Source: Candidatus Hydrogenedentota bacterium
Lineage (GTDB): Bacteria > Hydrogenedentota > Hydrogenedentia > Hydrogenedentales > JAEUWI01
Length of the DNA stretch: 64,000 nucleotides
Direction: 5' to 3'
Assembly (NCBI GenBank): GCA_019637335.1
Contig: JAHBVV010000004.1
Coordinates: 80,471 to 144,470, forward strand
The position numbers and the translations under genes were made by a program. Below are positions 19,591 to 42,414 of the stretch, piece by piece (position 1 is the first letter of the stretch; each line of letters starts with the position of its first letter). Below the pieces are notes generated by a model. The model ran no database searches, was not told where the DNA came from, and saw nothing but the letters and a program-made list of their open reading frames with translations.

Positions 19591-19752
19591 CGCGCGCCCG
19601 GGACCCGCGCGGCCCGGCGTTCATTCCAACGAATAGTTTTCGGGCTCGGGCGGTATATCCTCCATCCGGCGCGCTATGCTTTTACGGCGGCCCGTGCTAC
19701 ACTACCCCGAACGAGGAACGGGCCACCCCCGATGGCGGCCCTTGCAGGAGGA

Positions 19753-20607: not shown

Positions 20608-22416
20608 ATGGACTCACCCGCCTACGGGTTCCTCCGCGAGGCCGGCCGGATAATCAATGCCGGCCAGTCGCGTTCCATCGCCCTGACGGGCAACATCTAC
20701 GACCTCTTTTGCCTTTCCGGCGACAGCCGCGGCGCCTATGTCCCCCTGATCGATTTCCTGATTGGCCACTGGTCCATCCCAAGCCACATCCTCCTCGTGT
20801 ATGAGGTGAATGGGCCAATCCGCTTCGTCCGCGAGGGCGATCAGGCCCGGCTCCGGGACGCCTGGCTTCAGTGGCGCACGGGGAAAACCGCCGACGACCT
20901 GGCGATCCAGCGCATGCTCGACCGGAGCCCCCCGATGGCGGCGGGCGAACGGGACTTCGATGTCCAGCTCCAGCAGGCGATCGGCCAGCCGTCCGTCGCG
21001 CTGGAACTGCTTCGCCAGCTTTGCCTCTGCTCGCGCAGCGAACTGAACGGCCAGCCGCTGCTCCGGCAGAACCTCATTGTGCTTATTGAAGGCGCGGACC
21101 TCATCCTGCCGGAAGGCGAAATCGCGCACCTCTCCGATCGCGATCGGCACCGCCTCAATATCTGCTATGACTGGTTCTCCGACCCCGGCTTCGTCAATGG
21201 CGGGGACGCCGCCGTGTTGATCGCCGAATCCCGCAGCCTCCTCAACCAGCGCATAGCGCGCCTCCCGCACCTCCTGGAGGTCACTGTTCCCGCTCCGGAT
21301 GAGGCCTGCCGGCTGCATTTTATCAATTGGTTTCGGAGCCAGCCCGCCACCGGCGGGCCCCTCGATCTCTGGAGTAGCCCCGAGGACCTGGCGACGGCTT
21401 CCGCCGGCCTCTCCACCCAGGCGCTGATGCAGCTCCTCAAGGGCGCCGCGCACCAGGCGGCCCCGCTCACCCGCGACGCCGTTATCGAGAAAGTCGGCGC
21501 CTACATCGAGATGCAGCTCGGCGAGGACATGGTGGAATTCAAGCGCCCGAGCCACACCCTGGACGACGTGGTGGGCTTTCGCAACCTCAAACGCTTCCTG
21601 CGCGACGAGCTCATGCCGCGCATCGCCGCCGGCGGGGACGACGCCCTGCCCGGCGCGGCGGTGGGCGGCGCCATCGGCAGCGGAAAGACCTTCATCTTCG
21701 AGGCCGTCGCGGCGGAACTCGACATGGTCGTCCTCGTGTTGAAGAACATCCGCAGCCAGTGGTACGGCCAGACCGATGTGCTCTTCGAACGCCTCCGGCG
21801 CGTGCTGGAGGCGCTCTCGAAGGTCCTGATCTTCGTGGACGAGGCCGACACCCAGTTCGGCGGCGTGGGGCCCGAGGAACATTCCACCGAGCGCCGCCTC
21901 ACGGGCAAGATCCAGGCCATGATGTCCGACACGCGCCTGCGCGGCCGCGTTACCTGGCTCCTCATGACCGCGCGCATTCATCTGCTCTCCCCCGACATCC
22001 GCCGGCCCGGGCGCGTCGGCGATCTGATCATCCCCGTCCTCGACCCCGACGGCGCGGACCGCGACGACTTCATCCGCTGGATGGTCCGGCCCGTCCTCGG
22101 GGAGGATTTGGATGAGAAGACCCTGGGCGCCTTGAAACTGGTCACCGCCGACTATTCCGCAGCCAGTTTCGCGGCGATCCGCGCGGAATTGAAGGCCCGC
22201 CACCGCCTCGGACCGCCCCTCACCCTTGACGGGGTGCTCGATGCCATCCACGACCAGCTCGCCCCGCCCATCGAGGAGACCCGCCGCTACCAGACCCTCC
22301 AGGCCCTCGTGAATTGCACCCGCCGCAGCCTGCTGCCGGATCCCGATGCCACCGCGGAAGATCGCGAGGCCTGGACGCGCGAGATCGCCGCACTCGAAGC
22401 GCGGGGGATACGGTAG
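20608..22416 (+). CDS. classic-clade AAA ATPase with large N-terminal domain
   Basis: LDDVVGFRNLKRF, Walker A GGAIGSGKTF, Walker B VLIFVDEAD, sensor-1 LLMTAR. Second region of homology DIRRPGRVGDLIIPVLDPD (compare RPGRFDRxIxVPLPD). 21 bp downstream of the pspA-like gene. Confidence 0.85.
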   Translation: MDSPAYGFLREAGRIINAGQSRSIALTGNIYDLFCLSGDSRGAYVPLIDFLIGHWSIPSHILLVYEVNGPIRFVREGDQARLRDAWLQWRTGKTADDLAIQRMLDRSPPMAAGERDFDVQLQQAIGQPSVALELLRQLCLCSRSELNGQPLLRQNLIVLIEGADLILPEGEIAHLSDRDRHRLNICYDWFSDPGFVNGGDAAVLIAESRSLLNQRIARLPHLLEVTVPAPDEACRLHFINWFRSQPATGGPLDLWSSPEDLATASAGLSTQALMQLLKGAAHQAAPLTRDAVIEKVGAYIEMQLGEDMVEFKRPSHTLDDVVGFRNLKRFLRDELMPRIAAGGDDALPGAAVGGAIGSGKTFIFEAVAAELDMVVLVLKNIRSQWYGQTDVLFERLRRVLEALSKVLIFVDEADTQFGGVGPEEHSTERRLTGKIQAMMSDTRLRGRVTWLLMTARIHLLSPDIRRPGRVGDLIIPVLDPDGADRDDFIRWMVRPVLGEDLDEKTLGALKLVTADYSAASFAAIRAELKARHRLGPPLTLDGVLDAIHDQLAPPIEETRRYQTLQALVNCTRRSLLPDPDATAEDREAWTREIAALEARGIR

Positions 22417-22619: not shown

Positions 22620-22870
22620 ATGCCAACGCATTCTTTCGGCCCGAAGGGCCAACGCAGTTTTCAGCCCCGGGCAACGCCCGGGGTTTGAGCGGCGGGTTTG
22701 TTGTACGCCCTGAAAGGGCAGCACAGTTGAACTTCAGAAACGCTGGACTGGATCACCACTGCGCTGCCCTTTCAGGGCGGGGAAGGTGGTGTCCCCGTGC
22801 TCCCTGGGCGTTGCCCAGGGCTGGGAGCTGCACTGGCCCTTCGGGCCGAAAGACCAGTCGATACGATTTC
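22620..22870. repeat. ~250-bp imperfect palindrome: two ~100-bp inverted arms, each holding three small hairpins
   Basis: Arm A is ggcccgaagggcc...ccccgggcaacgcccgggg...gccctgaaagggcagcacagt. Arm B is its inverted complement at ~85% identity. Spacer is tgaacttcagaaacgctggactggatcacc. Confidence 0.6.
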
Positions 22871-23054
22871 ACCAACTGAGGCTCCAACCGGCATACATTG
22901 GCGGTTCCGGAAAATTCGGGCACGAAGAAACGCCTGTGAATAATCCCGTACGCTCAAACTGGATGCGCCATAGATTGTCGGTAGCGACGTCGCGTTGCAC
23001 GCGCCATAGAGGCCGCCGGAAAATCCATTGGCAGCGGAATATAAGGAAGCCGAA

Positions 23055-23258
23055 ATGAAACTGAAAGTTATCGTTCACGAAGCGGAGGAAGGCGGATTCT
23101 GGGCCGAAGTGCCCGCCATCCCCGGTTGCGCGACCCAGGGCGACACCCTGGACGAACTGATGGAAAACCTTCACGAGGCGATCGAAGGGTGTCTGTCCGT
23201 GGACCTTCAGGACATCGAAATGGCCACCACGGATAGAGTACTGGAGCTTACCGTTTGA
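23055..23258 (+). CDS. hicB: HicB-family antitoxin
   Basis: MKLKVIVHEAEEGGFWAEVPAIPGCATQGDTLDELMENLHEAIEGCL: UPF0150/HicB signature. Confidence 0.75.
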   Translation: MKLKVIVHEAEEGGFWAEVPAIPGCATQGDTLDELMENLHEAIEGCLSVDLQDIEMATTDRVLELTV

Positions 23259-23461
23259 AGCCCGTAAGCGGAAGGCAAGTGTGCCGGCTGCTGGAAGAGA
23301 GGGGATGGGTGCTCAAGCGAATCAACGGAAGTCACCATGTCTATGCGAAAGCAGGTGAGGTGGCCCGTATTTCCGTTCCGGTGCATGGCGGGAAGGCGCT
23401 GAAGTTGGGGCTGCAACGGCACATCATGAGAGTTGCCGCGATCGGCGAAGGCGATCTGTAG
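23255..23461 (+). CDS. hicA: HicA-family toxin (mRNA interferase)
   Basis: LEERGWVLKRINGSHHVYAKAGEVARISVPVHGGKALKLGLQRHIMRVA. 4-bp overlap with hicB. Confidence 0.75.
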   Translation: MKPVSGRQVCRLLEERGWVLKRINGSHHVYAKAGEVARISVPVHGGKALKLGLQRHIMRVAAIGEGDL

Positions 23462-23550: not shown

Positions 23551-25569
23551 TCAATCCCAGTCTTCGTCAGGAGACAGCGCAAGACGGACTGAATCTCCGC
23601 CCGAAAACTCACTGGCCCACGCATCAACGCCCCGCACCGCACCCGCCACGAAAACCCCATGCTGTTCGCCCAGCGCAATGAAGTCCGCCTCGGTCCAGTC
23701 GGGCCGCCGCAACAGCGCGTAGAGCGCGTCGCGGTAGGGGTCCGGTTCCGCGTCGCGCGTAATCTCGGGGGCCGCCGGCGGCTTGCGCGCATACCAGATC
23801 CCGCGCGCGTTGTCCTTCGCGCCCGTCTTCTCCAGGGCCTGCATGGCGATGCCGAGCCGAGCCGCGAAGTCACGCGTCTCGCGCATTAACCCCGCCAGAA
23901 CCTCCTCCCGCACCGCGCGCGCGCCATCGGGGCCCGGATCGCCTTCGAGCTTCTCCAGCAGGGCGTCCAGGGCTGTCACCGGGATGCGGAAGGCCCGGTA
24001 CGCGCGGCGCAGCGCGAGGCGCTCTTCGTCGCGGATGCGGAAATTGGCCCCGGCAACCCCCACGAGGAATTTTCCGACTTCCGCGAGCTCGTCCTCCGAT
24101 AGGATCGCGCGCACGCGCCGCGTGAGGCTCGCCAGCTTCGGCGGATACTTCAGCAGCCGCTTCCGGAGCACGCCGAGCCGGTGCTTGTCGAAATCGTTGA
24201 AGTGATACAGCGAATTCACGATTTCCGAGACGTGCAGCACCTCAATGTGGTCCACTTCGCCGTCGGCCTCGGCCATGGCGGCGCCCAGCGCGAGCAGCAG
24301 CGCGCCCGCCAGGTACCAGGGCTCCCCCTCCGCGCAGGGCTGCTCGGGCAAACGCACCAGCGCCACACGCTCGCCGCCCTTCCACGGGCGCAGGAGCAGC
24401 CGCGGATTCGGCAGCGCCTCGAATCCCGCCGCGCCGGCCGCCGACACGATGCGCTCGCACACCGGAAGCGGCATTGGACCCTTGCCGGGTGTCGCCTGGC
24501 CCGCGAGCGCCGCCAGCTTCCGAACGGGAACCAGAATCCGCCCATCGCGGCTCAGATGCGCGTCCACCAGCGCGGTCCACGGCGAATCCGCCGCCTCGCC
24601 CGCGCACGCGCGCCAGATCGCCACGAGCGGCTCAAACTGCGCCTGCTCCGCCGCCACATCGGTCGACGTCACCGACCAGAGCTTGCTGAAATGCTCCCAG
24701 CTTTGCAGCGCCGGATTCACGGGGCGGTATTTCCACGTGTGGTTCTTTTCCGCGCGCTGGAGGCGCATCCCGGCGCCGAATTCCTCGGTGTAGGCCGCGG
24801 TAAAGCACGCCTCGAAGGCCTCGCGGTTCGCCCGGAACGCCTCGACATGCGGGCAGCGCAGGTCCTGCCGCGCGATCTCGAAGGCCAGCGGCGCGGGCAG
24901 CGGCTTCTTCCGCGCGTAGAGCCACGTGAGCGCCACGGAAATCGAATCGTTGTGCAGCGGGACCGCGCGCTTCACGAACAGGCGGTCAAACCACGCCGGC
25001 TTCAGCTTTTCGATGCCCTTCGTGGCGAAAAGGAAGGCCGCCAGCCGCGACGCGCAGCTGAAAAAGGACGCGTTTCCGTCGTAGTGCTTCAAGAGGCCCA
25101 TTAGCGCCCGGAGGATATCCTCGGGCTCGCCGCGATCAATGAGCGCATGGCGCTCCAGGCCGTAGAAGTACAAAAACGCGTAGTTGATGTCGCGCAGCGG
25201 CCCCCGGCGGCCGGAAGCGAGCCACTTCAGGTAGTTCGCGCGCTGCACGGGGGTCAGGTTCGCGTAGGTCGCCCAGTGCGGAAGCGCCGGCGCCCCGTCA
25301 AAATCCGGTTCGCCCACTGGAAGCGCTGTATCGATGCACGACGCCTCCTGTTCCACCGGCGCGCCATCGGATGAGTACAGCATCGGCCGCGCGATGGCAT
25401 ACCCCACGTGCGAGAAGTCCTCCTCCCGCCCATGCCACGCCAGCGCCTCACCGCCGCCGGGCGCCGAAGTCTCCTCCACCAGCGCCCACGGCACCGTCCA
25501 CCGCTCGTCCACATCATGGAGCGAAGGGGTGTGGGTTGGGGCCGGTTCTGGCGTTGGGGGCTCGGACAC
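23551..25569 (-). CDS. TerB-domain protein (putative TerB-N / TerB / TerB-C architecture), 672 aa
   Basis: Central segment AMAEADGEVDHIEVLHVSEIVNSLYHF resembles the TerB metal-binding helix. The conserved N-terminal block is ALPHWATYANLTPVQRANYLKWLASGRRGP...YAFLYFYGLERHALID. Domain assignment is from memory, not a search. Confidence 0.5.
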   Translation of the reverse strand: MSEPPTPEPAPTHTPSLHDVDERWTVPWALVEETSAPGGGEALAWHGREEDFSHVGYAIARPMLYSSDGAPVEQEASCIDTALPVGEPDFDGAPALPHWATYANLTPVQRANYLKWLASGRRGPLRDINYAFLYFYGLERHALIDRGEPEDILRALMGLLKHYDGNASFFSCASRLAAFLFATKGIEKLKPAWFDRLFVKRAVPLHNDSISVALTWLYARKKPLPAPLAFEIARQDLRCPHVEAFRANREAFEACFTAAYTEEFGAGMRLQRAEKNHTWKYRPVNPALQSWEHFSKLWSVTSTDVAAEQAQFEPLVAIWRACAGEAADSPWTALVDAHLSRDGRILVPVRKLAALAGQATPGKGPMPLPVCERIVSAAGAAGFEALPNPRLLLRPWKGGERVALVRLPEQPCAEGEPWYLAGALLLALGAAMAEADGEVDHIEVLHVSEIVNSLYHFNDFDKHRLGVLRKRLLKYPPKLASLTRRVRAILSEDELAEVGKFLVGVAGANFRIRDEERLALRRAYRAFRIPVTALDALLEKLEGDPGPDGARAVREEVLAGLMRETRDFAARLGIAMQALEKTGAKDNARGIWYARKPPAAPEITRDAEPDPYRDALYALLRRPDWTEADFIALGEQHGVFVAGAVRGVDAWASEFSGGDSVRLALSPDEDWD

Positions 25570-25770
25570 TCAATTCCCTTTCAAAGGGCCAAAAGGACGT
25601 AAAGGACCGAAGGGACCGAAGGGACCTGAAAACACCCTCTATTTGGGCCGTATTGCGTGGGCCCCCGGCAAAATGCCGCGCCCGTTCACCGGCCCTCAAT
25701 GATTCACTTCATCCAGGTCCCTTACGTCCCTTTAGTCCCTTAGGTCCCTGTCCTTTTTCAACTGCAACTG

Positions 25771-28700
25771 TCATTTGTCCTGGAGCTCATCCAACAACAC
25801 CTGATACCGCTCCAGGTTCTCGTCCATCAACGCCTTCAATCGCTTCATCTCCTCCGTCTGCTCGCGCGTCTCCTTGAAGATGGGCGCGAGCCAGCCCTGC
25901 ATCAGCTTGAACTGCTCGCTCATCACCCCGACGAGCGCGGCGGGCACTTTCGACACGACGTTCACGGTCGTCGGAACGGGCTCGTGCACGGGCGCGGCTT
26001 CCGTTGCCTCACGGGAGGCCGCCATCTGCGCCGCGCCGGATTTCATGGCGGCGGCGATAGATTCGAGGCCGTCGTTAATGCTGCCCAGCTGCACCAGCAC
26101 CTGGCCCACCGCCTGATCGTCGCCAAGCCCCTTCAGTTTCAGGTTCTTCGTGAAGGTCTTCTTGATGCTGGCCCAGCGCTCCGCCTCGGACTCGCTCAGC
26201 TGGCCCGTCAGCTCCTTGAACTTGAGCATGTTCGCCTCGGCTCCGCTCGTGAGCGTCTGTGAATCGCCCTCGTAGCTGCTGTTGATCAGCGTGCGCAGTT
26301 CGGCGTCGTTCAACAGATCCAGCACGCGCTCGGCGATGCGGTTCATGTTGCGGTAGGAACCCTGGAGCTTGAACGCGGGCTCCGTGCGGTAGTCCTCGTG
26401 GATGCCGGCGGACCGGATGTACTCCTTGTTCACCGTCAGCACGGTGTCCCGCACGAAGAGCAACTTCTTCATCACGTTCACCATGCTGTTGACTTCGTCC
26501 AGCGAGAAGCTGCCCTTCAGGTCGATGCCCTCGCGGCTGCCCGTCTGCGCCATGCGGATAATCGCGTAGACGTCGTCCTGGCTGCGCGCCGCGAGCTGGT
26601 TCAGCACCGGGTTCGAGGTCAGGCAGTTCTCCAGGTAACTCGTCTCGAAGTCGTCGGCGCTGTCGCCGATGATCTCGCCGAGGTTATACGTGTCGGCGCG
26701 GTTGGCCAGCATGTCGGGAATCTGAAACTTCTCGCCGCTTTCCGTGTAGGGGTTGCCCGCCATGACCACGGCCACTTTTTTGCCGCGCAGGTCGTAGGTG
26801 CGCGTCCGGCCCTTGTGCACGCCCTCGATCTTCCGCTGCGCGTCGCACAGGGAGATGAACTTCTGGAGGAACTCCGGATTACAGTGCTGGATGTCATCCA
26901 CATACAGCATCACGTTATCGCCCATTTCCAGCGCGAGGTTCAGCTTCGCCAGCTCCTCGCGCGCGGCGGCGTTCGTCGCTTCGGAGGGGTCGAGCGAGGT
27001 AACCTGGTGCCCGAGCGCGGGGCCGTTGATCTTCATGAAGATCAGGCCGAGACGGTTCGCGATGTATTCCATCAGCGTCGTCTTGCCGTAGCCCGGGGGC
27101 GAGATCAGCAGCAGCATGCCCGACCGGTCCGTGCGCTTCTGGTCGCCCGCCGCGCCGATCTGCTTGGCCAGGTTGTCGCCGATCAGCGGCAGGTAGACGT
27201 TGTCGATCAGCCGGTTCCGCACGAAGGACGTCAGGACGCGCGGCTTGAACTCGTCCAGCCGCAACGCGACGGCCTCGTCCTCCACGAGCTGCTTCTTCCG
27301 CGCGACATAGGCCTCGTAGCGCGGCACGGTCTCCTGCCGGTAGGCCGCCAGGCGGGCCATGAACGTATTGTAATTCAGCAGGTACTTCCCGCCCTCCAGG
27401 AGCGCGTGGCTGCCCGCCAGGCCCGACAGCTCCGCTGTCGAAGTGGCGTGGATGATGCGGCTGATGTCGTGGTCGCCCGTCAGGATCAACGCGGCGGTTT
27501 CATCGACATAATCCCGCTCCACCGCCACGCCCCGGCTCCGGACAAAGGCGCCCGCCCAGTCGCGGCAGAGGAGGAAGGCGCTGTTCGGGTTGGGCCGCGC
27601 CTCGTTCAGGGAGGCCTCGAAGCGCGCCGCAAAGTCGTTCTTTTTCAGGTGCATCAGGAAATCCTGATACAGCCGGTCCGCGTTTTCGCTGATGGCCGCG
27701 CCGCCGCCGCGCACCAGGATCTCGAACAGGTACCGCGCCGCCTCGCCCGCCCAGATCGGGTCGAAGGCCTCGGTTTCCGCCAGGTACGCATCAATCAGCC
27801 CGTGGAGTTCGGCCGTGTAATGGCGCTGCGCCTCCGCGTCGCCGAACAGTTCGCGGATGACGCCGAAGCCCTTCAAGGTGCTTGCTATTCGCGCTTTCGT
27901 CTCCTCTTCCCGGAACTGATGCCAGAACACCGACGCCAGCGCGCGGGCGATCGGGTGGAACGCGAGCAGCCCGATTGACGCCTCCATATCGAGCAGCGCG
28001 CGAAGGATCAGCGCCGCGTCGTGATCGTGCACGCCCTTTACATAGCCCTCGGAATACCGCGATCCCATGTATTTCTGGATGAAGGCCTGCAACGCCTCCG
28101 GGGACATCGCCCGGAGCTCCTCCAGCTCCATCCCGCCCGGCGCACGGGTCTCCTCCAGGATTAAGTAGGCCAGGTACTCGGCCCGGTATACCGAATCGTT
28201 CTCCGACATCACCTCCTGGGACCACAGATCGCGCGTGGCCAGGAACGCTTCGTCCCGGATCGGGTCGAAGTAGTTCGTTCCGGCCAGGTGGAAATACATC
28301 TCCCCATCGCGCATGACCGTGGTCAGCGCGAGGTCAAACGTATTGACCGTGAATTTGTGCGCGCCGAAGCGGATGACGTTCTCGCCCTCGGTGAACAGGT
28401 CCAGCCGGTCCTTGAGCTGGCGGACCGCGTCCTCGCCGATGGTCTTCAGCCGGCTTTGGACGTCATCCAGCTTGACGGTGTCTCCCAGATCCCGCAGCTC
28501 GTCGATGATGCCGCGCACCTTCTCGATCATGAGATCGGAGGCAAAGTACGCGTGTATCTCCTCGACTGCCTTGAAGGTCGCCACGCGGCTCTTGATACCG
28601 TTCAGGATACGGTCCGCCGCCTGCATGAGGGCCGTCGCGCGCTTGTTCTGGCGCTCCTGGAGCTGGATCTTCCGCGATTCAAACGCGTTGTACGCCTCCT

Positions 28701-30948
28701 CGCGCTTCTCCGTGAGTTGCATCACGAATTCGTCGAATTCGGCGAAGCGCCCTTCCAGCTCCTCGATCTGCACCATCACCCGCGTGAGGTACTCGTCGCA
28801 TTTCGGGATGGTGTCGCACAGGTCGATGTAGTTCGCCACGGCCTGATTCAGCAGCTTGATCTGCGAGTTGAACTCGGCGATCCCCTCGGAGCGCCCCAGG
28901 TCGCGGGTCTTGTTCTTCAAGTGCGACCGCGTCTTGTTCAGCGTGGCGAAAATTTCCGAAATTGCGTCGATAATCGCCGTGCGCTGGGTCGCGTCCTCAA
29001 TACGCAGGTTGCTCACGACGTCGATCAGCAATTCCAGGTCCGCCGCCTGCCGATCGATCTCTTCGCCGAGCGCGCGGGCGTCCGACACCTTCTGGAGCCC
29101 GTCGATCTTGCCGGCGTGACCCTGAACGGCTTTCTCGTAGGGCGCCAGCGACTCCGGGCGCAGCAGAAACTCGACGCAGCGCTGCCCGAGATCCTCCGCC
29201 AGCCCCGCCAGCCCCTCCTGAAGCGCCTCCACGGCGGGCAGGTCCATGTATTTCACATCGCGCAGGGCGATGATGCGCCCCCGGCACGCGCGCACGCCCG
29301 CGAGCGAGTCCACAAAGTCGTGGATACTCTCGAACAAACGCGCGCCCGCCGCTTTCGTGATTTCGTCGGCCTCGGCGGCGGCGGCGGCGAGCTGTTCTTT
29401 CGCGTTCCGCCGCGCGTTGGAGACCTTCTCGAATTCGCTGATCGCCGCCTGGCCGGCATCCCGGATGGCGCTAAGGTCGACCTTCAGATTGAAGGTTTCC
29501 TCGTTCCCGATCCAGTGGTACACGTCAAACATGACGCTGATTTTCTTGACGATATCGCCGTAGAGATTGGCGTAGCTATCCTCCTTGGCAATGAGATTCA
29601 GCACCTCGTTGCAGTCCGCCATGCCGCGGACAATATCCTTGTTGCCAATTTTGAACAGCATGGAGTCCGACTGCTCGGCAACGGGCAGGTCCGCGCTGCG
29701 GTAGGGCGTCTGCCAGATCTGCAGGGCGTGATTCCGCTGGGCTTCCGGCGCCGCCTTGAAATAGATCATCTCGCCGTTCTTGAAGATGGAGTATCCGTTG
29801 CAGGGAATCGGCGTGTCCACGGTCTGCGTGATCACGTTGTAGGAAAGCAGGACGTAGTCGCCCTTCTCCCGGTTGTAGAAGACGAACAGATAGTCCTCCC
29901 CGTTGCTGGAGGGGAGCCGCTTTTCGAAGAGCATGTCCCGGTAGCCGCCGCCGAAGGACTTCTGCTCGCCGGTCTGCAAAACGTACCCGTTGGCGTGGAT
30001 GATCCCGTGCTCCTCGGGAAGCAGCACGCAGGATTCCTGGATGGCGTCGATCCGGTAGACCTTCTGGTTCTTCTCGCAGAAGACCAGGTAGCGCCACGCA
30101 TTTTCCTGGTACGGCCGGATCTTGAGCAGGATCAGGTTCCCCACGATCGCGTAGAAGAACTCCGCATCGTCCAGCGTCTGGTCCTTGTCCTCCACCGGCT
30201 CCTGATAGATGCCGAGGCCGCTTTCGGTGTTGTTCTCCACCTTCACCGTCAGGTCGCCGCCCACGGTTTCGACGAACACCCGGTCTTCGATGGAGACGTG
30301 CGGGTGGCGCCCCTGGTAGTGCATGTCGCGGTGGGTGCGCTTCCACTCGAACTCGTGTTGCGGCGGAAAGCGGTACTCGTGATCGCTGCGGTTGTCCATA
30401 TACCGCAGCGCGTCGCCGTCCACGGCCCACTTGAAGACCTTCACGTCCGTGACGTTCTTCCCCACGCGGAACACCATGAACAGGTGCGGGCCGATGAAGG
30501 AGAACTTGGCGAAAACGGTGTTCTTGTAGTACTTGAACAGCTCCTGGAAGTCCCGCGCGAAGGTCTCGTCGCCGATCAGGTCGAGGGGCTCGCGAACGAG
30601 CGTGCGCCCGTCGAGCCGGTAGACCGAGAACACGTCCTCCAGCGCGATCTGCGACTTCAGGCCGATGTGCACGTTGTACCCGAAGATAAACCGGTCGCCG
30701 ATCGGCGCCATATCCCGCGGAATGCAGCTGTGATCGGTCGTAATGTGCTCGGTGGCGAGCAGCTTCGTCTCGATCGCGCCGAAAACGGCCTTCCGCGCGG
30801 CGTTGAGCTTTTCCAGCCGCTCCTGGAGCGCCTTCCCGCCTTTCGCGAGGCGGTTGCGTATGATTTCATACGCGCCCGCCTCCAGGCTGTCGCCGCCCGC
30901 TCCGTCGAGCGCGTCGGGGGCCGGAGCCATCTTTTCCACTTCAGCCAT
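25771..30948 (-). CDS. giant (1725 aa) multidomain protein: beta-rich N-terminus, ~500-aa coiled coil, MoxR/AAA_5-like ATPase domain
   Basis: Walker A LLLISPPGYGKTTLMEY (nt ~27076-27126), Walker B VMLYVDDIQH, sensor VVMAGNPY. Heptad-rich region LKVDLSAIRDAG...EELEGRFAEFDEF... Stop-free ORF with coherent codon usage. Confidence 0.85.
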   Translation of the reverse strand: MAEVEKMAPAPDALDGAGGDSLEAGAYEIIRNRLAKGGKALQERLEKLNAARKAVFGAIETKLLATEHITTDHSCIPRDMAPIGDRFIFGYNVHIGLKSQIALEDVFSVYRLDGRTLVREPLDLIGDETFARDFQELFKYYKNTVFAKFSFIGPHLFMVFRVGKNVTDVKVFKWAVDGDALRYMDNRSDHEYRFPPQHEFEWKRTHRDMHYQGRHPHVSIEDRVFVETVGGDLTVKVENNTESGLGIYQEPVEDKDQTLDDAEFFYAIVGNLILLKIRPYQENAWRYLVFCEKNQKVYRIDAIQESCVLLPEEHGIIHANGYVLQTGEQKSFGGGYRDMLFEKRLPSSNGEDYLFVFYNREKGDYVLLSYNVITQTVDTPIPCNGYSIFKNGEMIYFKAAPEAQRNHALQIWQTPYRSADLPVAEQSDSMLFKIGNKDIVRGMADCNEVLNLIAKEDSYANLYGDIVKKISVMFDVYHWIGNEETFNLKVDLSAIRDAGQAAISEFEKVSNARRNAKEQLAAAAAEADEITKAAGARLFESIHDFVDSLAGVRACRGRIIALRDVKYMDLPAVEALQEGLAGLAEDLGQRCVEFLLRPESLAPYEKAVQGHAGKIDGLQKVSDARALGEEIDRQAADLELLIDVVSNLRIEDATQRTAIIDAISEIFATLNKTRSHLKNKTRDLGRSEGIAEFNSQIKLLNQAVANYIDLCDTIPKCDEYLTRVMVQIEELEGRFAEFDEFVMQLTEKREEAYNAFESRKIQLQERQNKRATALMQAADRILNGIKSRVATFKAVEEIHAYFASDLMIEKVRGIIDELRDLGDTVKLDDVQSRLKTIGEDAVRQLKDRLDLFTEGENVIRFGAHKFTVNTFDLALTTVMRDGEMYFHLAGTNYFDPIRDEAFLATRDLWSQEVMSENDSVYRAEYLAYLILEETRAPGGMELEELRAMSPEALQAFIQKYMGSRYSEGYVKGVHDHDAALILRALLDMEASIGLLAFHPIARALASVFWHQFREEETKARIASTLKGFGVIRELFGDAEAQRHYTAELHGLIDAYLAETEAFDPIWAGEAARYLFEILVRGGGAAISENADRLYQDFLMHLKKNDFAARFEASLNEARPNPNSAFLLCRDWAGAFVRSRGVAVERDYVDETAALILTGDHDISRIIHATSTAELSGLAGSHALLEGGKYLLNYNTFMARLAAYRQETVPRYEAYVARKKQLVEDEAVALRLDEFKPRVLTSFVRNRLIDNVYLPLIGDNLAKQIGAAGDQKRTDRSGMLLLISPPGYGKTTLMEYIANRLGLIFMKINGPALGHQVTSLDPSEATNAAAREELAKLNLALEMGDNVMLYVDDIQHCNPEFLQKFISLCDAQRKIEGVHKGRTRTYDLRGKKVAVVMAGNPYTESGEKFQIPDMLANRADTYNLGEIIGDSADDFETSYLENCLTSNPVLNQLAARSQDDVYAIIRMAQTGSREGIDLKGSFSLDEVNSMVNVMKKLLFVRDTVLTVNKEYIRSAGIHEDYRTEPAFKLQGSYRNMNRIAERVLDLLNDAELRTLINSSYEGDSQTLTSGAEANMLKFKELTGQLSESEAERWASIKKTFTKNLKLKGLGDDQAVGQVLVQLGSINDGLESIAAAMKSGAAQMAASREATEAAPVHEPVPTTVNVVSKVPAALVGVMSEQFKLMQGWLAPIFKETREQTEEMKRLKALMDENLERYQVLLDELQDK

Positions 30949-30998
30949 GGGTGCATCTCCCTCGTGATTCCATCACGCGAACCTCGGGCCTGCGCCCA

Positions 30999-33008
30999 TC
31001 AGAGGATCTGGCTGAGTTTCTTCTTGCTGAAGCCGAACTGCTTCGCCAAGCCGGCGAGGATGTCGAACTCGCCCTCGTCGGCTTCGGATTCGGCAAGCCC
31101 GCGCATCTTGTTGAGCAGCGCCGCGACGGACAGGTTCTTCACGTCCTCGCTGCCGATGCCAAACTGCTGCGTGAACTGCTCCATCCGCGCCTTGAAATAG
31201 GCCGGATCGCCGTTGAAGAAGGTATTCTTCACGTCGGTCAACGCGCGGCTGTTGTCCACCAGGCGATCGACGGACTTCCCGTTGGTGATCGCGCTCGTGA
31301 TCTTGTCGAAGAACTGCGCCTCGCCGCCGACGATGTCGATCCGGGCGCTCTTGAGGGCCTCTCCCAGGATGGCCGCCTGCTGGCGCGCGATCTCTTCCTG
31401 CGCCGCGATAGCCGCCAGTTCGATGGCCTTCGTCTTTTCCAGGTTGAGCTTGAACTCCTCGTGCTCGCGGCCGACCTCGTTGAAGAGCTTCATCGCCTCG
31501 GCCTTGTCCGTGATGCCCTTGGCGTCGGCCTCGAACTTAAGCTGCATCACCTCGGCTTCCGCCTCGCCCTGCTTCTTCGTCGCCGCCGCGCGCGCTTCCA
31601 GGCCCCTCGCCTCGGCGACGGCCTTGCTCTCGATCACCGCCGCCTCCGCCAGGCCCGCCGCCGCCTGCTCCGCCGTCACGCCCTCGGCCAGCAGCTTCTT
31701 GCCCACCGCCTCGCGCTCGCTCGCGTCGCGCAGCGCCTCGGCCGAAATGACCTGCTCTTCCGCGCTGAACCGGGCCGCGTCGCGGCGCGCCTCGGCCGCC
31801 TTGATCTCCTTGACGAGGGCTTCCTGGGCATTCTGCTCGGCCGCCGTAATCGCGACTTTCTTGGCGCGTTCGGCGGTCGCGAATTCCTGCGTGTCCTTGA
31901 TGCGCTCCTGCTCCTCGACCACCGCCCGCTCGACGATCACCCGCTCGCGGATCACGTCCTGGATCGCCTTCTTCTCCACCTCGATGGCCTTGTCCTTCTC
32001 GATGGCCGCCAGCGCCACCACGCGCTCCCGTTCCGTCGCTTCGAGCATGCGGTCCTTCTCCACGCGCTCCTTCTCCACCTGGTCCGTGCGCTCCTTGTTG
32101 CGCAGCGCCACGATCACCTGCCGGTCCTTGTTCTCGTTCGCGATCGCCACCTCTTCCTCGGTGGTGATCCGCGCGCGCTCGGACTTCAGGCGCTCCTCTT
32201 CCTTGATTTTCGCGGCCTCGGCCTGCTCGCGCGCCTGCACGGACTCGATCTCGCGCAGCTGCTTCGCTTCCGCCTCCGCCTGCTGGCGCTCCAGCTCCAG
32301 GATCGCCTCCCGCGCCTCCACGTCCTGCTTCTTTATGATCTTTTCCTTGTCGCGCGTGATGCTGTTCGCCAGAATCTGCTGCTGCGCGGTCAGGTCCGTG
32401 ATCTTCTTGATGCCCTCGGAATCCAGGATGTTGTTCGGATCCAGCTGGTTCATCGGCGTCTGTTCGAGGTAGTCGATCGCCGCGTCGTCCAGCACGTACC
32501 CGTTCAGGTCCCGACCGATAATATTGAGGATCTCTTCCTTGAACTCCTCCCGCGACGTGTACAGCGCGATGAAATCAAACTTCTTGCCCACGGTCTTCAG
32601 CGCTTCGGAAAACTTCGCGTCGAACAGCTCCTCCAGCTTCGACTCCTCCGACGCGCGCGCCGCGCCGATGGACTGCGCCACCTTGAGCACGTCTTCCTCG
32701 TTGTTGTTGACGCGCACGAAGAACGCCACCTTGATGTCCGCGCGGACGTTGTCCTGGCAGACCAGGCCTTGCGCGCCGTGCCGGAAGATCTCGATGCGCC
32801 GCACGGAGATGTCCATGACCTCATGCTGGCGTATCAGCGGCAATACGATTGCCTTCGAGAAATGCACCGAGGGCTTGCTGCCGCCGGTGATAATGAGCGC
32901 CGTGCCCTGTTCGACCTTCCGCCAGCATTTGATCACCATCACCATAATGGCGACCGCAATGACGCCCACGAAGAGCGCCACTATCCCAATGAGTCCCTGC
33001 ATTTTCAA
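30999..33008 (-). CDS. flotillin / SPFH (band-7) domain protein, YqiK/FloT-like
   Basis: N-terminal TM, then SPFH core (KCWRKVEQGTALIITGG...DISVRRIEIFRHGAQGLVCQDNVRADIKVAFFVRV). Long EA-rich coiled coil and flotillin C-terminal region. Confidence 0.85.
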   Translation of the reverse strand: MKMQGLIGIVALFVGVIAVAIMVMVIKCWRKVEQGTALIITGGSKPSVHFSKAIVLPLIRQHEVMDISVRRIEIFRHGAQGLVCQDNVRADIKVAFFVRVNNNEEDVLKVAQSIGAARASEESKLEELFDAKFSEALKTVGKKFDFIALYTSREEFKEEILNIIGRDLNGYVLDDAAIDYLEQTPMNQLDPNNILDSEGIKKITDLTAQQQILANSITRDKEKIIKKQDVEAREAILELERQQAEAEAKQLREIESVQAREQAEAAKIKEEERLKSERARITTEEEVAIANENKDRQVIVALRNKERTDQVEKERVEKDRMLEATERERVVALAAIEKDKAIEVEKKAIQDVIRERVIVERAVVEEQERIKDTQEFATAERAKKVAITAAEQNAQEALVKEIKAAEARRDAARFSAEEQVISAEALRDASEREAVGKKLLAEGVTAEQAAAGLAEAAVIESKAVAEARGLEARAAATKKQGEAEAEVMQLKFEADAKGITDKAEAMKLFNEVGREHEEFKLNLEKTKAIELAAIAAQEEIARQQAAILGEALKSARIDIVGGEAQFFDKITSAITNGKSVDRLVDNSRALTDVKNTFFNGDPAYFKARMEQFTQQFGIGSEDVKNLSVAALLNKMRGLAESEADEGEFDILAGLAKQFGFSKKKLSQIL

Positions 33009-33081
33009 ACCCTCCAGTATCGATCCGTTGGTGAGTAGTTGTTGTCAATCCGGGGCCGGAGCCCGCCGCCGTCGCGATGCC

Positions 33082-33732
33082 CTATACCGCGTCTGGCTCC
33101 GTCTTATTCACGCTTCCTTCAAAGGGAGCGATAATGTACGTTCCATCTTCCTCCCGCGCGACCACCACCGCCTCGTCTCCTTTACGCATGGTGACGCCTT
33201 CGCGGGTCTTCACGTTGAGCAGCAGCGGGGCCCCCTTCATCGGCAATTCCGCCTGCCCGCGCTTCGGCGTGGCCTCCAGCGAGGCCACCACGCACAATTG
33301 CCCGATAATCTGAACCGAATCGCCCGACTCGTCGAACAAGTTTTTGAGCAACGGCACGAACGGCTTCAGCGAAAACCTGGTGAGCACCAGCCCGGCCAGG
33401 AAAATCGGCACAAAAAGCACCGCCGCCAGCAACAGGCTCGCGTTGCCCGTGTAGTAATTGGTGAGAATCGACAGGCACCACATGGAGACGCTCAGCACGG
33501 AAACCACCAGGGTGACCGGCACATCGGCGGCGTACACGAACCGCATCACGGCCCCCAGGCCGAGGCAACCGCTGCCGTCGGCGTCCACGTCGCCATCCCC
33601 CAGATCGAAATCCAGCAGATCGGCCCCGATCGCGCCCGCGATGTAAGTCAGCCAGTACAACCCGCAGAGACCAAACAGGATGGTGTACGGCAAATTTACC
33701 GGCCGGATGGCCTCTTGAAGCACCTCAATCAT
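33082..33732 (-). CDS. YqiJ-like inner membrane protein (DUF1449, NfeD-like partner of flotillin)
   Basis: Start MIEVLQEAIRP. Polytopic membrane N-terminus plus C-terminal soluble beta-rich domain. Sits upstream of the flotillin gene as in E. coli yqiJK. Confidence 0.6.
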   Translation of the reverse strand: MIEVLQEAIRPVNLPYTILFGLCGLYWLTYIAGAIGADLLDFDLGDGDVDADGSGCLGLGAVMRFVYAADVPVTLVVSVLSVSMWCLSILTNYYTGNASLLLAAVLFVPIFLAGLVLTRFSLKPFVPLLKNLFDESGDSVQIIGQLCVVASLEATPKRGQAELPMKGAPLLLNVKTREGVTMRKGDEAVVVAREEDGTYIIAPFEGSVNKTEPDAV

Positions 33733-33856
33733 GCCCTGCACTCCCAAGATACGCAGTCCCGAATACCTGAGGGACGCCATAGTGGCACGACAACACGCCA
33801 CCGGTCAACAGGTGCGCACGTGTTCCCGTGCAGGGAGTACCGTATTGCCCCTGAGT

Positions 33857-34051
33857 TTATTCGATCGCGATGACTTCCAAGGATTCGGCCAGCGCGCTGT
33901 CCGAGGGCGCGAAGGCGCACTGCGTCATGGGACAAGTGGCCCGACCGGCGGTGTGATTGTCCATAAACCACCGGTGGGCGGCGTCGTGGTGAAGGTGAGT
34001 AGGCCTGGCAAGCGCCAGCAGAACGTTCACGTCGAGCAGGGCGACGCTCAA
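33857..34051 (-). pseudogene. vapC: truncated VapC (PIN-domain toxin), N-terminal 64 aa only
   Basis: MSVALLDVNVLLALARPTHLHHDAAHRWF is a PIN N-terminus. The ORF stops after 64 aa where an intact VapC needs ~130. The next gene starts ~55 bp later. Confidence 0.5.
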
Positions 34052-34278
34052 TCCTCTTCCTCGACCCGATGCATGTCCTCAATCGAAATGGGACGCGCCC
34101 CCGGGGCCACCCGGAACATGGGAAACCCCGTTTCGGGCCGCCGGTCAAATTCGGTCGTGGACGCAAGCCCCTGCCGCGCCAGATCGGTAAGAACCCGGCC
34201 AAGAGACACGGACCTTGCCCGCGCGAGTTCGCGCGCTACTTCCAGCAAGTCGTCATCTATAGTTACCGTGGTCTTCAT
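34048..34278 (-). CDS. vapB: VapB-family antitoxin
   Basis: MKTTVTIDDDLLEVARELARARSVSLGRVL. ATGA overlap with the vapC remnant. Confidence 0.65.
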   Translation of the reverse strand: MKTTVTIDDDLLEVARELARARSVSLGRVLTDLARQGLASTTEFDRRPETGFPMFRVAPGARPISIEDMHRVEEED

Positions 34279-34600
34279 AGTTGTAACACTTTAGCCGTAT
34301 GAAATGGCGCCAGCCCATTCTTGTCATGCCGCGATACTACGACGAGAGCGCGCAAGGCTGGGAGCGCAGGCGTCCCCGCCTGCAATGCACCAGAGGTGCA
34401 TGGCGTGTTGGCAATATCGGCACATTTGATCGGGGAGACGATCATACCCGAACTACCGCTGTTTAACAGATTCGCGCCTCCGGCGCGTTGCGGGCGGGCC
34501 GCCCGCGCTCCCATTCGTCCGCACTTCCGTTGCGGCGCAGGATTGTGTCGTCGAGGAATCAAGCCAGCTTCATTCCGCTAGAAGATTACTCATAGTTCAA
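34265..34600 (+). repeat. ~330-bp ORF-less repeated element, copy 1 (second copy at 46905-47240)
   Basis: ~90% identical to 46905-47240 in the same orientation. Begins ttgtaacactttagccgtatgaaat. Track ORFs on both strands inside it are not conserved as proteins between the copies. Confidence 0.7.
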
Positions 34601-34749: not shown

Positions 34750-37593
34750 ATGCTCCATCGCCGCGCCTTATGCTCGCCCACTTCAGCCCTCGCGCTTCTC
34801 GCCATGCTTGTTTCCACAGCCGCCGCCACTCTCACCCCCGAGCGCCTTCGCTGCGAGTACCTGGAGAATCCCCTCGGCATCGACGTCGCCGTCCCGCGCC
34901 TCTCCTGGATCGTCACCTCCGGCGAACGCGGACAGCGCCAGACCGCCTGGCAGATTCAGGCGGCCTCCACCCCGGAAAAACTTGCCGCGGGCGATGCCGA
35001 TCGCTGGGACTCCGGCAAGGTGGAGAGCGACGAAACCCTCCACATCCCCTACGGCGGCGCGCCGCTGCATTCCCGCGCGCAGGTCTTCTGGCGTGTCCGC
35101 GCGTGGGACATGAACGGCGCCCAGGGCGAATGGAGCGCTCCCGCCGCGTGGTCCATGGGCCTGCTGGACAAGGCCGAATGGACGGCGGCGTGGATCAGCT
35201 TCAAGGACGACACGCCCTTCGATGCGTCGCAGGAGAAGATGGTCCTGCCGCCCGCGCGCTATTACCGCAAGGACTTCGCCGCGCCGAAGGAGATAAAGCG
35301 CGCCACCATCTATGCCACGGCGCTCGGGATCTACGAATTCTCCCTGAACGGCGAACGCATCACCGACCAGCTATTCGCGCCCGGCTGGCCGGACTACCAC
35401 CAGCGCGCCTACTACCACACCTACGACGTCACAACCCGCCTCCAGCAGGGCGACAACACCTGGGGCGCCATCCTCGCGGACGGCTGGTACAGCGGCTACC
35501 TGGGCTACGGCCTCCTTGTGGGCTACGGCCCCAACAAATCCGGCCGCGCCTTCTACGGCAAGACCCCCGCCTTCCAGGCGCAGCTCGAAATCGAGTATGC
35601 CGACGGCTCGAAGGAGATCGTCATCACCGATCCCACTTGGAAAACCGCTACGGGACCGATCCTGATCGCGGACATGCAGATGGGCGAGACCCACGACGCG
35701 CGCCTGGAAATGCCCGGCTGGGATGCGCCGGGCTTCGACGACGCCGCCTGGAAATCCGCCATCCACGCCGAGGACAACGGCAGCATCCGGGTCCCCTATT
35801 GGGATCAGGGCGGCGGCAAAACCGTCGAGCTCGGTTTCCAGGAGCCGCCGGTCTACCAGTCCCACCCCGGCGTTCCCATCCGCCCGATCGAACGGATCGC
35901 CGCGAAATCCATCAACGAGATCGAATCCGGCGTCTACATCGTCGACTTGGGCCAGAACATCTCCGGCGTGGTCGAATTGAAGGTCAAGGGTCCCTCCGGG
36001 ACGCGCGTCCAACTGCGCCACGGCGAAATGCTCCATCAGGACGGCACGCTCATGACCGAAAACCTCCGCAAGGCCCTGGCCACGGACGTCTATATCCTCA
36101 AGGGCGACCCGGACGGCGAAACCTGGCGGCCCCGTTTCACCTTCCACGGCTTCCAGTTCGTCGAGGTGACCGGCCTGCCCGAAGCGCCCACGCCCGACAC
36201 CGTCACCGGCGTGGTCATCCATTCTGACACCCCGCTCCGCAGCCAGTTCGCCTGCTCCGACGACATGGTCAACCAGCTCTTCAGCAATATCGTGTGGACC
36301 CAGCGCGCCAACTTCCTCGAACTGCCCACGGACTGCCCCCAGCGCGACGAACGCCTCGGCTGGACCGGCGACGCCCAGATCTACGCCCGCACCGCCACGA
36401 TCAACGCGGATGTGGGCGCCTTCTTCACCAAGTGGATCCAGGACCTCGAAGAGGCCCAGAAGCCCAACGGCGCGTACCCCGAGTACGCGCCCCACCCCAT
36501 GAACCACGGCCGCGACGGCATCTCCTGGGGAACCGGCTGGATGGACGCAGGCGTCATCGTGCCCTACGCCGTCTACCAGGCCTACGGCGACACCCGCGTC
36601 ATCGAGCGCCACTACGACGCCATGGCCCGCTTCATGGAATTCCGCCGGAGCCTCGCGCCCGACTTCCAGGGCGTCTTCACCGGCAACGACTGGGGCGACT
36701 GGCTCTCCCTCAGCAAGACCCCCATCGAATACATCGATGCGTGCTACTTCTACTACACCGCCAGCCGCATGGCCGAAATGGCCGACGCCATCGGCAAGAC
36801 GGAAAACGCCGCGAAATATCGCGACTGGATGAGACAAATTCAGGCCCGCTTCGTCAAGAACTACCTGAACGACGACGCCAGCCTGGCCGTGCGGACCCAG
36901 ACCGCCTACGCCGTCGCCCTCAACGTGGGCATCCTCCCCGAGGGCCAGCGCGGGGCCGCCGGCGACCGCCTCGCCGCACTCATCGCCGAAGAAAACCACG
37001 CCATGAGCACCGGCTTCATCGGCACCCATCCCCTCCTCCCCGCCCTCACCGACACCGGCCACCACGACCTCGCCGTCCGCCTCCTCCAGAACCGAAAATA
37101 TCCCTCCTGGGGCTTCCCCGTCGTCAACGGCGCAACCACCGTGTGGGAGCGCTGGAACAGCTACACCATCGAGGGCGGCTTCGTCGCCGGCATGAACTCC
37201 TTCAGCCACTACGCCTTCGGCGCCGTCTGCGAATGGATGTTCACCGACCTCGCCGGCATCGACACCGACGGCCCAAGCTACAAACACATCATCCTCCGCC
37301 CCGGCATCCCGAGTGCGGGGAGCAATCCGGATTTCGCCCCGATTGAATGGGTCGAAGCCGAGTATGACTCGATTCGAGGGAAGATTAAGGTGGCGTGGAA
37401 GAAGACGGAGTCGGGATTGGAATGCAACGTGACGATACCCGCGAATACGACGGCGACATTGGAGCTGCCTGTCGGCGAGGGTGCGGTGGTGACCGAGGGT
37501 GGGAGGGCGTTGGCGGAGGCGGGGATTGCGGTGGAAAGTGATGGGAAGATGAGGCTGGCGGCGGGAAGTTATCAAATTGTACAGTCGAATTGA
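34750..37593 (+). CDS. alpha-L-rhamnosidase (GH78), secreted
   Basis: Signal peptide MLHRRALCSPTSALALLAMLVSTAAA. GH78 N-terminal domain LRCEYLENPLGIDVAVPRLSW..., six-hairpin catalytic region and C-terminal beta-sandwich. Confidence 0.85.
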   Translation: MLHRRALCSPTSALALLAMLVSTAAATLTPERLRCEYLENPLGIDVAVPRLSWIVTSGERGQRQTAWQIQAASTPEKLAAGDADRWDSGKVESDETLHIPYGGAPLHSRAQVFWRVRAWDMNGAQGEWSAPAAWSMGLLDKAEWTAAWISFKDDTPFDASQEKMVLPPARYYRKDFAAPKEIKRATIYATALGIYEFSLNGERITDQLFAPGWPDYHQRAYYHTYDVTTRLQQGDNTWGAILADGWYSGYLGYGLLVGYGPNKSGRAFYGKTPAFQAQLEIEYADGSKEIVITDPTWKTATGPILIADMQMGETHDARLEMPGWDAPGFDDAAWKSAIHAEDNGSIRVPYWDQGGGKTVELGFQEPPVYQSHPGVPIRPIERIAAKSINEIESGVYIVDLGQNISGVVELKVKGPSGTRVQLRHGEMLHQDGTLMTENLRKALATDVYILKGDPDGETWRPRFTFHGFQFVEVTGLPEAPTPDTVTGVVIHSDTPLRSQFACSDDMVNQLFSNIVWTQRANFLELPTDCPQRDERLGWTGDAQIYARTATINADVGAFFTKWIQDLEEAQKPNGAYPEYAPHPMNHGRDGISWGTGWMDAGVIVPYAVYQAYGDTRVIERHYDAMARFMEFRRSLAPDFQGVFTGNDWGDWLSLSKTPIEYIDACYFYYTASRMAEMADAIGKTENAAKYRDWMRQIQARFVKNYLNDDASLAVRTQTAYAVALNVGILPEGQRGAAGDRLAALIAEENHAMSTGFIGTHPLLPALTDTGHHDLAVRLLQNRKYPSWGFPVVNGATTVWERWNSYTIEGGFVAGMNSFSHYAFGAVCEWMFTDLAGIDTDGPSYKHIILRPGIPSAGSNPDFAPIEWVEAEYDSIRGKIKVAWKKTESGLECNVTIPANTTATLELPVGEGAVVTEGGRALAEAGIAVESDGKMRLAAGSYQIVQSN

Positions 37594-37674
37594 TCGTATC
37601 GAGAAGGCTTCACCCTAACGTATACGTTCCTTGCACAGTGGAGACTACTTGGTCGCATCTCAGAGGGAGGCTAT

Positions 37675-42360: not shown

Positions 42361-42414
42361 CCGCGCACAGCGCCTAAGAAAGTCCCAACGGGGCGGCATA
42401 GGCCCCGCGTCCGT

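Follow-up and report, generated by a model that had tools for sequence, protein, structure and literature searches.

SPFH proteins build cages that pair with AAA+ machines, and the structures of flotillin cages (44-mer) are well established. The pairing of SPFH2 proteins with NfeD-like partners was established by Hinderhofer et al. (2009), whose account does not mention an ATPase. The closest described system is a PspA-associated operon reported from comparative genomics by Ravi et al. (2024, mSystems; preprint 2020, with Anantharaman, Aravind and Gennaro among the authors; PMC11237479, section 19). It includes a YqiJ/YuaF protein with three transmembrane (TM) segments, a flotillin and an AAA+ ATPase with a propeller and coiled coil, is sometimes accompanied by a CesT/Tir–PspA dyad and a phospholipase D gene, and is widely distributed in abbreviated versions; TerB goes unmentioned. 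Here I compare this operon with a locus of a Candidatus Hydrogenedentota bacterium, contained in a stretch of 64,000 nucleotides (assembly GCA_019637335.1, contig JAHBVV010000004.1, positions 80,471 to 144,470 of the forward strand) that is called the window throughout.

The window encodes the same three proteins in the same order and with the same architecture: a YqiJ-like membrane protein, a flotillin and a giant AAA+ ATPase of 1725 amino acids (aa). It differs from the published operon in adding a TerB protein (672 aa) and in having as neighbours a divergent PspA-like protein and a classical AAA+ ATPase, a pair that Ravi et al. place in an ABC/OmpA context of its own and not beside this operon; nor is there a phospholipase D gene at the window locus. 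The core is therefore widespread and already described, with a function that is predicted only, whereas its extension by TerB and the connection with the PspA-like/AAA+ pair are new. A sequence-only reading of this DNA had called the fusion of all four genes not a textbook system. This no longer stands for flotillin, YqiJ and the giant ATPase, but the addition of TerB does look new, and a literature search found no combination of TerB with flotillin. A search for literature on YqiK, YqiJ and the ATPase together also found none.

The best overall explanation, to which I assign a probability of roughly 0.6, is that the locus is a vertically inherited chromosomal module for membrane maintenance, consisting of the core operon, TerB and the PspA-like/AAA+ neighbours and working by a remodelling mechanism, and not a mobile island.

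The yqiJ–flotillin–ATPase core

One genome per GTDB species was scanned for relatives of the giant protein, which were found in at least 535 stretches, and the best 80 loci were kept together with their flanks (10 kb at most, less where a contig ended sooner). Sixty-one of these have more than 3.3 kb of upstream DNA and are informative about upstream gene order. In 59 of them yqiJ and flotillin lie directly upstream of the giant ATPase gene on the same strand, and the genes usually overlap or are separated by very small gaps. The loci come from Planctomycetota, Bacteroidota, Verrucomicrobiota, Desulfobacterota, Kiritimatiellota, Calditrichia, Omnitrophota and Hydrogenedentota, and the three core proteins are 50–85% identical across phyla. 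Only two loci, L047 and L067, lack an adjacent yqiJ and flotillin despite enough upstream DNA. By contrast, no downstream gene family is common to more than six of the 80 loci, and no downstream partner is shared across phyla. The conserved core is three genes (yqiJ, then flotillin, then giant ATPase), because a search with a TerB profile found TerB in only two of the 80 loci.

In L047 an AbiEii-like gene stands immediately upstream of the giant ATPase gene. The junction between flotillin and ATPase is interrupted in some Bacteroidota, by genes for a DUF5687 protein and an ABC ATPase in L071 (7649-9884) and by a DUF3800 gene in L034 (8630-9793), and gaps occur there in L052 and L036 too. Strict adjacency is therefore not obligatory. 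The full form of the operon is seen in six Bacteroidota loci, where genes matching CesT_Tir_1 (E 8.6e-56) and PspA_IM30 (E 9.4e-41) lie immediately upstream of yqiJ. No match to this dyad was found in the window, which therefore contains the abbreviated form.

In the window the open reading frames (ORFs) confirm four co-oriented minus-strand genes with short gaps, as had been described from the sequence (Table 1): about 79 bp between yqiJ and flotillin, about 50 bp between flotillin and ATPase, and about 201 bp between ATPase and TerB.

The full-length flotillin has no Pfam match, Band_7 included, even at an E-value of 10. When its N-terminal 220 aa were scanned alone, however, Band_7 matched with an E-value of 3.3e-12, placing the SPFH domain at residues 29–169. 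The full-length match is presumably suppressed by the long, biased coiled-coil region. Residues 1–30 form a strong TM helix by hydropathy, and the remainder is long, helical and rich in Glu and Ala. The earlier identification of an SPFH protein or flotillin is upheld by the N-terminal Band_7 match and the TM helix, and although the separate Pfam flotillin model does not match, the predicted product is classed as an SPFH2/YqiK-type flotillin.

The upstream protein has three hydrophobic segments by hydropathy, an acidic, Asp-rich loop and a soluble C-terminal beta domain. Its window copy likewise has no Pfam match even at an E-value of 10, but homologues from 61 loci match it in phmmer searches with E-values from 1e-8 to 1e-80, and 18 of 30 members of the family match Pfam YqiJ_N. 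The protein had been proposed to be DUF1449/YqiJ-like; DUF1449 as such is not matched, while the family-level matches and the three hydrophobic segments favour the second half of the name, and I take the product to be a probable YqiJ/YuaF-like (NfeD-related) membrane protein. In the precomputed Pfam tables for loci L081, L082, L086 and L087 all flotillin and YqiJ homologues are marked '-'.

The giant ATPase belongs to a family of more than 4500 proteins from at least eight phyla. An NCBI record of a Candidatus Hydrogenedentes metagenome-assembled genome contains a 100% identical copy of it, as well as one of the window TerB protein, in agreement with the source lineage. Pfam places DUF3686 at residues 41–478 (E 1.7e-187) and DUF7902 at residues 600–682, and both AAA and AAA_5 exceed their cut-offs over residues 1279–1404. 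An AlphaFold2 model of residues 1–520 (mean predicted local distance difference test, pLDDT, 87; predicted template modelling score, pTM, 0.85) begins with a helix at the N-terminus and continues as an all-beta domain, whose top listed Foldseek neighbours are propellers and propeller-containing proteins, for example Sec12, DCAF1, KLHDC3 and prolyl oligopeptidase; the model indicates that this domain is a beta-propeller. The protein can then be divided into an N-terminal helix, the propeller (residues ~60–415, DUF3686), a helical and coiled-coil-like region (~430–860, including DUF7902) recognised by crude heptad periodicity and composition, a helical middle domain, a MoxR-class AAA+ module (~1270–1440) and a helical C-terminus; no TM segment is predicted. 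The nearest relatives of the AAA+ module, by structure and by sequence, are MoxR/AAA_5 members. Its motifs SPPGYGKTT, DDIQH and AGNPY are invariant across 11 homologues, and so are Walker A (GYGKTT), Walker B (DD) and sensor-1 (N1399-P). The architecture first read from the letters, a beta-rich N-terminus, a coiled coil and a MoxR-type P-loop, is thus borne out by Pfam, by AlphaFold2 with Foldseek and by periodicity.

NCBI names this protein 'DNA repair ATPase', and the Pfam description of DUF3686 is 'ATPase involved in DNA repair'. If these labels were right it would be a true SMC- or RuvB-like repair ATPase and the adjoining membrane genes would be incidental. Sub-threshold matches to RuvB_N and RuvB, a weak match to the LmuB coiled coil and the occurrence of RuvB among the Foldseek matches could be read in the same sense, but the RuvB matches span the P-loop stretch alone (residues 1260–1315) and reach 22.6 bits against a cut-off of 27 and 23 bits against one of 282. 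Nor is the protein an SMC or a dynein-like housekeeping protein: it has a single AAA+ P-loop module in its C-terminal third and a propeller at its N-terminus, and neither Pfam nor the models revealed a split ABC-type head or a DNA-binding or nuclease domain or partner. Its gene is, moreover, near-obligately operonic with those of two membrane proteins. A literature search on DUF3686 (PF12458) found no paper, and none behind the name, so that the label appears to lack support and should be used with caution. I regard a primary role in DNA repair as very improbable.

TerB as a lineage-specific fourth gene

The TerB-N and TerB-C domains were reportedly defined by Anantharaman and colleagues in 2012. 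Among validated defence systems, Shango, Bunzi and Dionysus contain TerB proteins, which others have proposed to be amphitropic and to survey membranes. The window protein matches Pfam TerB_N (E 6e-25) and TerB (E 3.5e-9; 37.4 bits against a cut-off of 24.4), and the PADLOC model for SngA covers residues 23–654 (E 5.9e-27). Pfam TerB_C has no match at its C-terminus, but the last 138 aa align to the extreme C-terminal TerB_C end of distant homologues. The predicted architecture is consequently the full SngA type, TerB_N–TerB–divergent TerB_C, and the conserved N- and C-terminal blocks noted earlier hold good, the first by profile and the second by homologue alignment, the TerB_C profile itself remaining unmatched. 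No TM segment is predicted.

Three distant homologues (27–31% identity) each stand in a Shango-type triad of a TerB_N–TerB–TerB_C protein, a BrxC_BrxD ATPase and a DEAD/Helicase_C protein. Loci L081, L082 and L086–L091 were compared in addition to the best 80, and neither SngB (the BrxC/BrxD-type ATPase) nor SngC (the DEAD/Helicase_C helicase) is among the neighbours in the window, L081, L082, L086 or L087. By this comparison the window TerB protein appears to be a member of the SngA family that lost SngB and SngC and became stably coupled to a different ATPase in one lineage.

This kinship raises the possibility that the four genes are an anti-phage or abortive-infection system, in which a Shango-derived TerB protein would sense perturbation of the membrane by phage and trigger the ATPase and a flotillin effector. 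The much faster evolution of TerB than of its neighbours would suit such a role, and toxin–antitoxin (TA) modules and a Dsr1-like gene of low guanine-plus-cytosine (GC) content lie nearby. However, PADLOC recognises the TerB protein alone, its matches to the other three proteins being weak and partial, and the cluster contains no nuclease, pore-former or NADase effector. The core genes are slow-evolving, mostly present irrespective of TerB and syntenic between related genomes, and the GC content of the cluster does not deviate, the TA genes being later insertions (see below). Because the core proteins are so similar across phyla, unlike those of fast-turnover defence islands, a defence island is unlikely, and the suggestion of a defence machine in the sequence-only reading finds little to sustain it; I consider a defence function of the whole cluster quite unlikely.

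The TerB profile was a hidden Markov model built from 57 homologues and run on the 80 loci. It found the gene only in L001 and L027, both from Hydrogenedentota, so that general co-conservation of four genes, which the sequence-only reading had looked for, is not seen: TerB is confined to one lineage and is not needed for core function. Once the additional loci are counted, those in which TerB follows the giant ATPase are L001, L027, L081, L082, L086 and L087; it is missing from L091, a Sumerlaeota locus whose giant ATPase is 61% identical to that of the window. The close relatives of the TerB protein (52–71% identity) all lack a Pfam TerB_C match, and their contigs, to judge by matching lengths, also encode close relatives of the giant ATPase.

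Four of these loci keep the order yqiJ–flotillin–ATPase–TerB at increasing distance from the window. In L082, with syntenic flanks, the giant ATPase is 79% and TerB 61% identical and the ATPase/TerB gap is 215 bp; in L081, with completely different flanks, the values are 66%, 43% and 105 bp. In L086 (62%, 34%, 28 bp) and L087 (62%, 35%, 30 bp) the flanks are again unlike those of the window. Flotillin identity to the window copy ranges from 73 to 85%. In L081, L086 and L087 taken together TerB is 34–43% identical, the giant ATPase 62–66% and flotillin 73–79%, and TerB diverges far faster than either.

TerB could nevertheless be a mere syntenic neighbour in one lineage, functionally independent of a real unit of three genes. 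It is, after all, absent from 78 of the 80 loci, the core has no widely common downstream gene family, an unrelated gene for a Zn-dependent dehydrogenase sits between ATPase and TerB in L001, and the gap in the window measures 201 bp, because of which co-transcription of all four genes there is only putative. Yet adjacency and orientation are kept down to 34% TerB identity while the other flanks differ entirely, the gap shrinks to 28–30 bp in L086 and L087, and no terminator-like site is predicted in the window gap. In addition, this TerB subfamily has no other nearby candidate partner and lacks the canonical SngB and SngC. A purely incidental neighbour thus seems unlikely, though not far-fetched, and TerB is better described as an apparently lasting addition gained in the Hydrogenedentota lineage.

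The PspA-like/AAA+ pair and the flanks

Downstream of TerB, on the opposite strand and outside the four-gene coordinates, lie the genes of a 284-aa coiled-coil protein (p284) and of a classical-clade AAA+ ATPase (AAA602). The best sequence matches of AAA602 in the PDB are VAT, Cdc48, p97, NSF, katanin and Vps4, and it accompanies p284 in every linked locus. As for p284, 24 of 30 members of its family match PspA_IM30 at an E-value of 0.1 or lower (best 1e-5) and several homologues are named PspA/IM30 by NCBI and JGI; by these family-level matches and database names it is a candidate PspA-like protein.

Nine loci of several lineages have the pair next to the module: the window, L082, L027, L086, L087, L057, L039, L090 and L091. 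Across the first five of these its arrangement takes three forms. The pair comes directly after the giant ATPase in L057 (Planctomycetota), L039 (Phycisphaerales) and L090, the last of which has a single same-strand run of yqiJ–flotillin–ATPase–p276–DUF7710–AAA628; in L091 the pair is upstream and divergent. It is probably functionally linked to the yqiJ–flotillin–ATPase module. Elsewhere the pair occurs in NMT1–VWA–OmpA–…–ABC operons (L088 and L089), the setting given for PspA with an AAA+ ATPase by Ravi et al. (2024; PMC11237479), and these contexts therefore support a membrane-remodelling setting for the whole neighbourhood.

Table 1. Positions of the module and of other features in the window.
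Feature	Position	Strand	Remarks
yqiJ-like gene	33082-33801; 33082-33732 from the probable ATG	minus	mechanical ORF from GTG at 33801 (239 aa), probable ATG at 33732; ORF list and translation
Flotillin gene	30999-33008; 30999-33002 from the first ATG	minus	669-aa ORF, first ATG at 33002; ORF list
Giant AAA+ ATPase gene	25771-30948	minus	1725 aa; ORF list
SngA-like TerB gene	23551-25569	minus	672 aa; fourth gene, lineage-specific; Pfam, PADLOC
p284 gene	19732-20586	plus	divergent PspA/IM30-like coiled-coil protein, 284 aa; family-level profile matches
AAA602 gene	20608-22416	plus	classical-clade AAA+ ATPase, 602 aa; Pfam AAA, E 3.7e-13
Palindromic element	22632-22683 and 22802-22853 (arms)		52-nt arms, 87% complementary; 118-nt spacer; between AAA602 and hicB
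Nested inverted repeat	22706-22779		22 nt, 95%; inside the palindromic element
hicB	23028-23258	plus	confirmed by profile
hicA	23255-23461	plus	confirmed by profile
'Truncated VapC' ORF after vapB	33857-34051	minus	64 aa; begins 'VALLDVNVLLAL…'; PIN-like N-terminus by eye only
vapB	34048-34278	minus	weak; E 0.0026, below cut-off
298-nt intergenic sequence	34283-34580 and 46921-47218		direct orientation; 93.6% identity
BNR/sialidase-like gene	45590-46870	minus	
Low-GC region	37590-41250	plus	GC 0.49-0.52 against ~0.63 elsewhere
Acido-Lenti-1 motifs (RF01687), four copies	41332, 41511, 41885 and 42998 (41332-43051)	plus	39.6-40.1 bits against a gathering threshold of 37
Large ORF	51856-55659	plus	1267 aa; no PADLOC match
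Large ORF, adjacent	55680-60299	plus	1539 aa; no PADLOC match

The sequence-only reading had seen in the flanks the marks of an acquired island, with hicBA on one side, a vapBC with truncated toxin on the other and repeats at 22.6 and 34.3 kb. This interpretation is rejected. The GC content of the cluster (0.61–0.69) is even across the four genes and does not differ from that of most of the window, and L082, a locus from a related 7.9-Mb genome, shares the flanks: the same rhamnosidase gene as in the window directly adjoins yqiJ, and its AAA602/p277 pair follows TerB with one DUF2971 gene between. Both hicBA and vapB are absent from this syntenic locus, and the TA modules and repeats are therefore insertions into a stable chromosomal neighbourhood, those of the TA loci being recent. 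VWA genes are also present in L082, but not in synteny with the window.

The flanking features are themselves of unequal standing. The hicBA genes are a solid type II TA pair converging on the TerB gene, whereas vapB is weak and the 64-aa VapC stump has no Pfam or PDB match. Both repeat elements exist, but they are unrelated to each other and were rejected as island boundaries. The palindromic element is present in a single copy in the window. The 298-nt sequence near 34.3 kb recurs once, each copy standing just upstream of a minus-strand gene (vapB or the BNR/sialidase-like gene); it has no Rfam match and may represent a promoter or leader that was duplicated, or else what is left of a mobile element.

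Farther away, the low-GC region contains a 966-aa ORF that matches PADLOC Dsr1 over its C-terminal two-thirds (E 8.3e-40), preceded by a 258-aa ORF with no matches. To judge by composition and profile match, this is likely to be a defence gene that arrived by horizontal transfer and whose N-terminus or effector is non-standard. The copies of the Acido-Lenti-1 motif sit just after it.

A proposed mechanism and its relation to known systems

Most likely, the module would use ATP for remodelling at membrane assemblies of flotillin, and TerB would be a sensor or adaptor particular to one lineage. With its N-terminal helix as anchor, the flotillin would oligomerise into a cage or scaffold at the cytoplasmic face of the inner membrane, with the NfeD-like YqiJ protein inside the enclosed membrane patch and its C-terminal beta domain bound to flotillin. 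The giant ATPase would hexamerise by way of the MoxR-like ring and, with arms of coiled coil and with the propellers, would reach or dock on the scaffold or its clients; ATP hydrolysis would then remodel, load or dismantle the assembly or those clients, much as NorQ and CbbQ exert a pull on their partners and as FtsH or the m-AAA protease act at cages of HflK/C or prohibitin. TerB, which is soluble and evolves fast, might serve as a sensor of membrane, metal or ligand state, or as an adaptor, that recruits or gates the ATPase, while membrane repair of the ESCRT-III type would fall to the PspA-like polymer together with the AAA+ partner that would disassemble it. I infer this scheme because SPFH cages (HflK/C–FtsH, prohibitin–m-AAA, the flotillin 44-mer) and MoxR remodellers (NorQ/NorD, CbbQ/CbbO) are known.

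Several observations weigh against a remodelling module of this composition. MoxR ATPases normally act with a VWA partner, and a Pfam scan found no VWA/MIDAS partner in the cluster or among the flanking ORFs of the window. The only signs of a coiled coil in the giant ATPase are crude periodicity and composition. The window p284 itself has no PspA_IM30 match; a phmmer search of it against the PDB returned nothing, a profile search there gave a weak Vipp1 match (E 1.3), and its hhalign comparison with a Bacteroidota PspA is weak (11% probability). The absence of TerB from most loci, the dehydrogenase gene in L001 and the 201-bp gap, all discussed above, count on the same side, and no experimental work on the operon or the giant ATPase was found in the literature. 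A maintenance module remains, on the estimate given at the outset, the explanation that I favour.

A further proposal, possible but doubtful, is that the DUF3686 ATPase is the long-missing ATP-driven remodeller of flotillin cages and would form one repair machine with the PspA/ESCRT-III-like polymer and the Vps4-like AAA+ ATPase, onto which a Shango-type TerB sensor was rewired in Hydrogenedentota. If this were true, TerB_N/TerB_C proteins would be generic, exchangeable sensors of membrane state that can be combined with ATPase motors of unrelated kinds, serving defence in Shango and membrane maintenance here. For the question of what bacterial flotillins (YqiK, FloT) do and what energises their assemblies, a conserved giant ATPase, from a large family mislabelled in public databases, is a concrete candidate partner. 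The recurrence of the PspA-like/AAA+ pair beside the module brings SPFH scaffolds and ESCRT-III-type repair closer together, and the TerB variant offers a natural experiment on SngA-type sensing: in Shango the sensor architecture goes with a helicase and a BrxD-like ATPase, here with a MoxR-class, flotillin-associated ATPase.

How, then, does the locus stand beside known systems? With Shango it shares the SngA architecture and the PADLOC match of the 672-aa protein, whose TerB_C is, however, too divergent for the Pfam model; the partner here is an unrelated, MoxR-class giant ATPase inside a flotillin operon, and SngB and SngC are absent. With the ter tellurite-resistance cluster it has the TerB domain in common, and none of the partners TerC, TerD, TerZ and TerA is among the scanned window ORFs. 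From the MoxR remodellers NorQ–NorD, CbbQ–CbbO and RavA–ViaA it differs in the missing VWA/MIDAS partner, in the propeller, the coiled coil and the helical domains, ~1250 residues in all, that precede the ATPase ring, and in an operon that the ATPase shares with two membrane-anchored proteins and not with a metalloenzyme client gene. Like Escherichia coli YqiJ–YqiK and Bacillus subtilis YuaF–FloT it encodes an SPFH scaffold together with an NfeD-type partner, although the giant ATPase is absent from E. coli and B. subtilis. Finally, the giant ATPase differs from FtsH and m-AAA in having neither a protease domain nor a TM segment and in belonging to a different AAA+ clade, but the proposed theme is the one known from HflK/C–FtsH and prohibitin–m-AAA: an AAA+ machine at an SPFH assembly.

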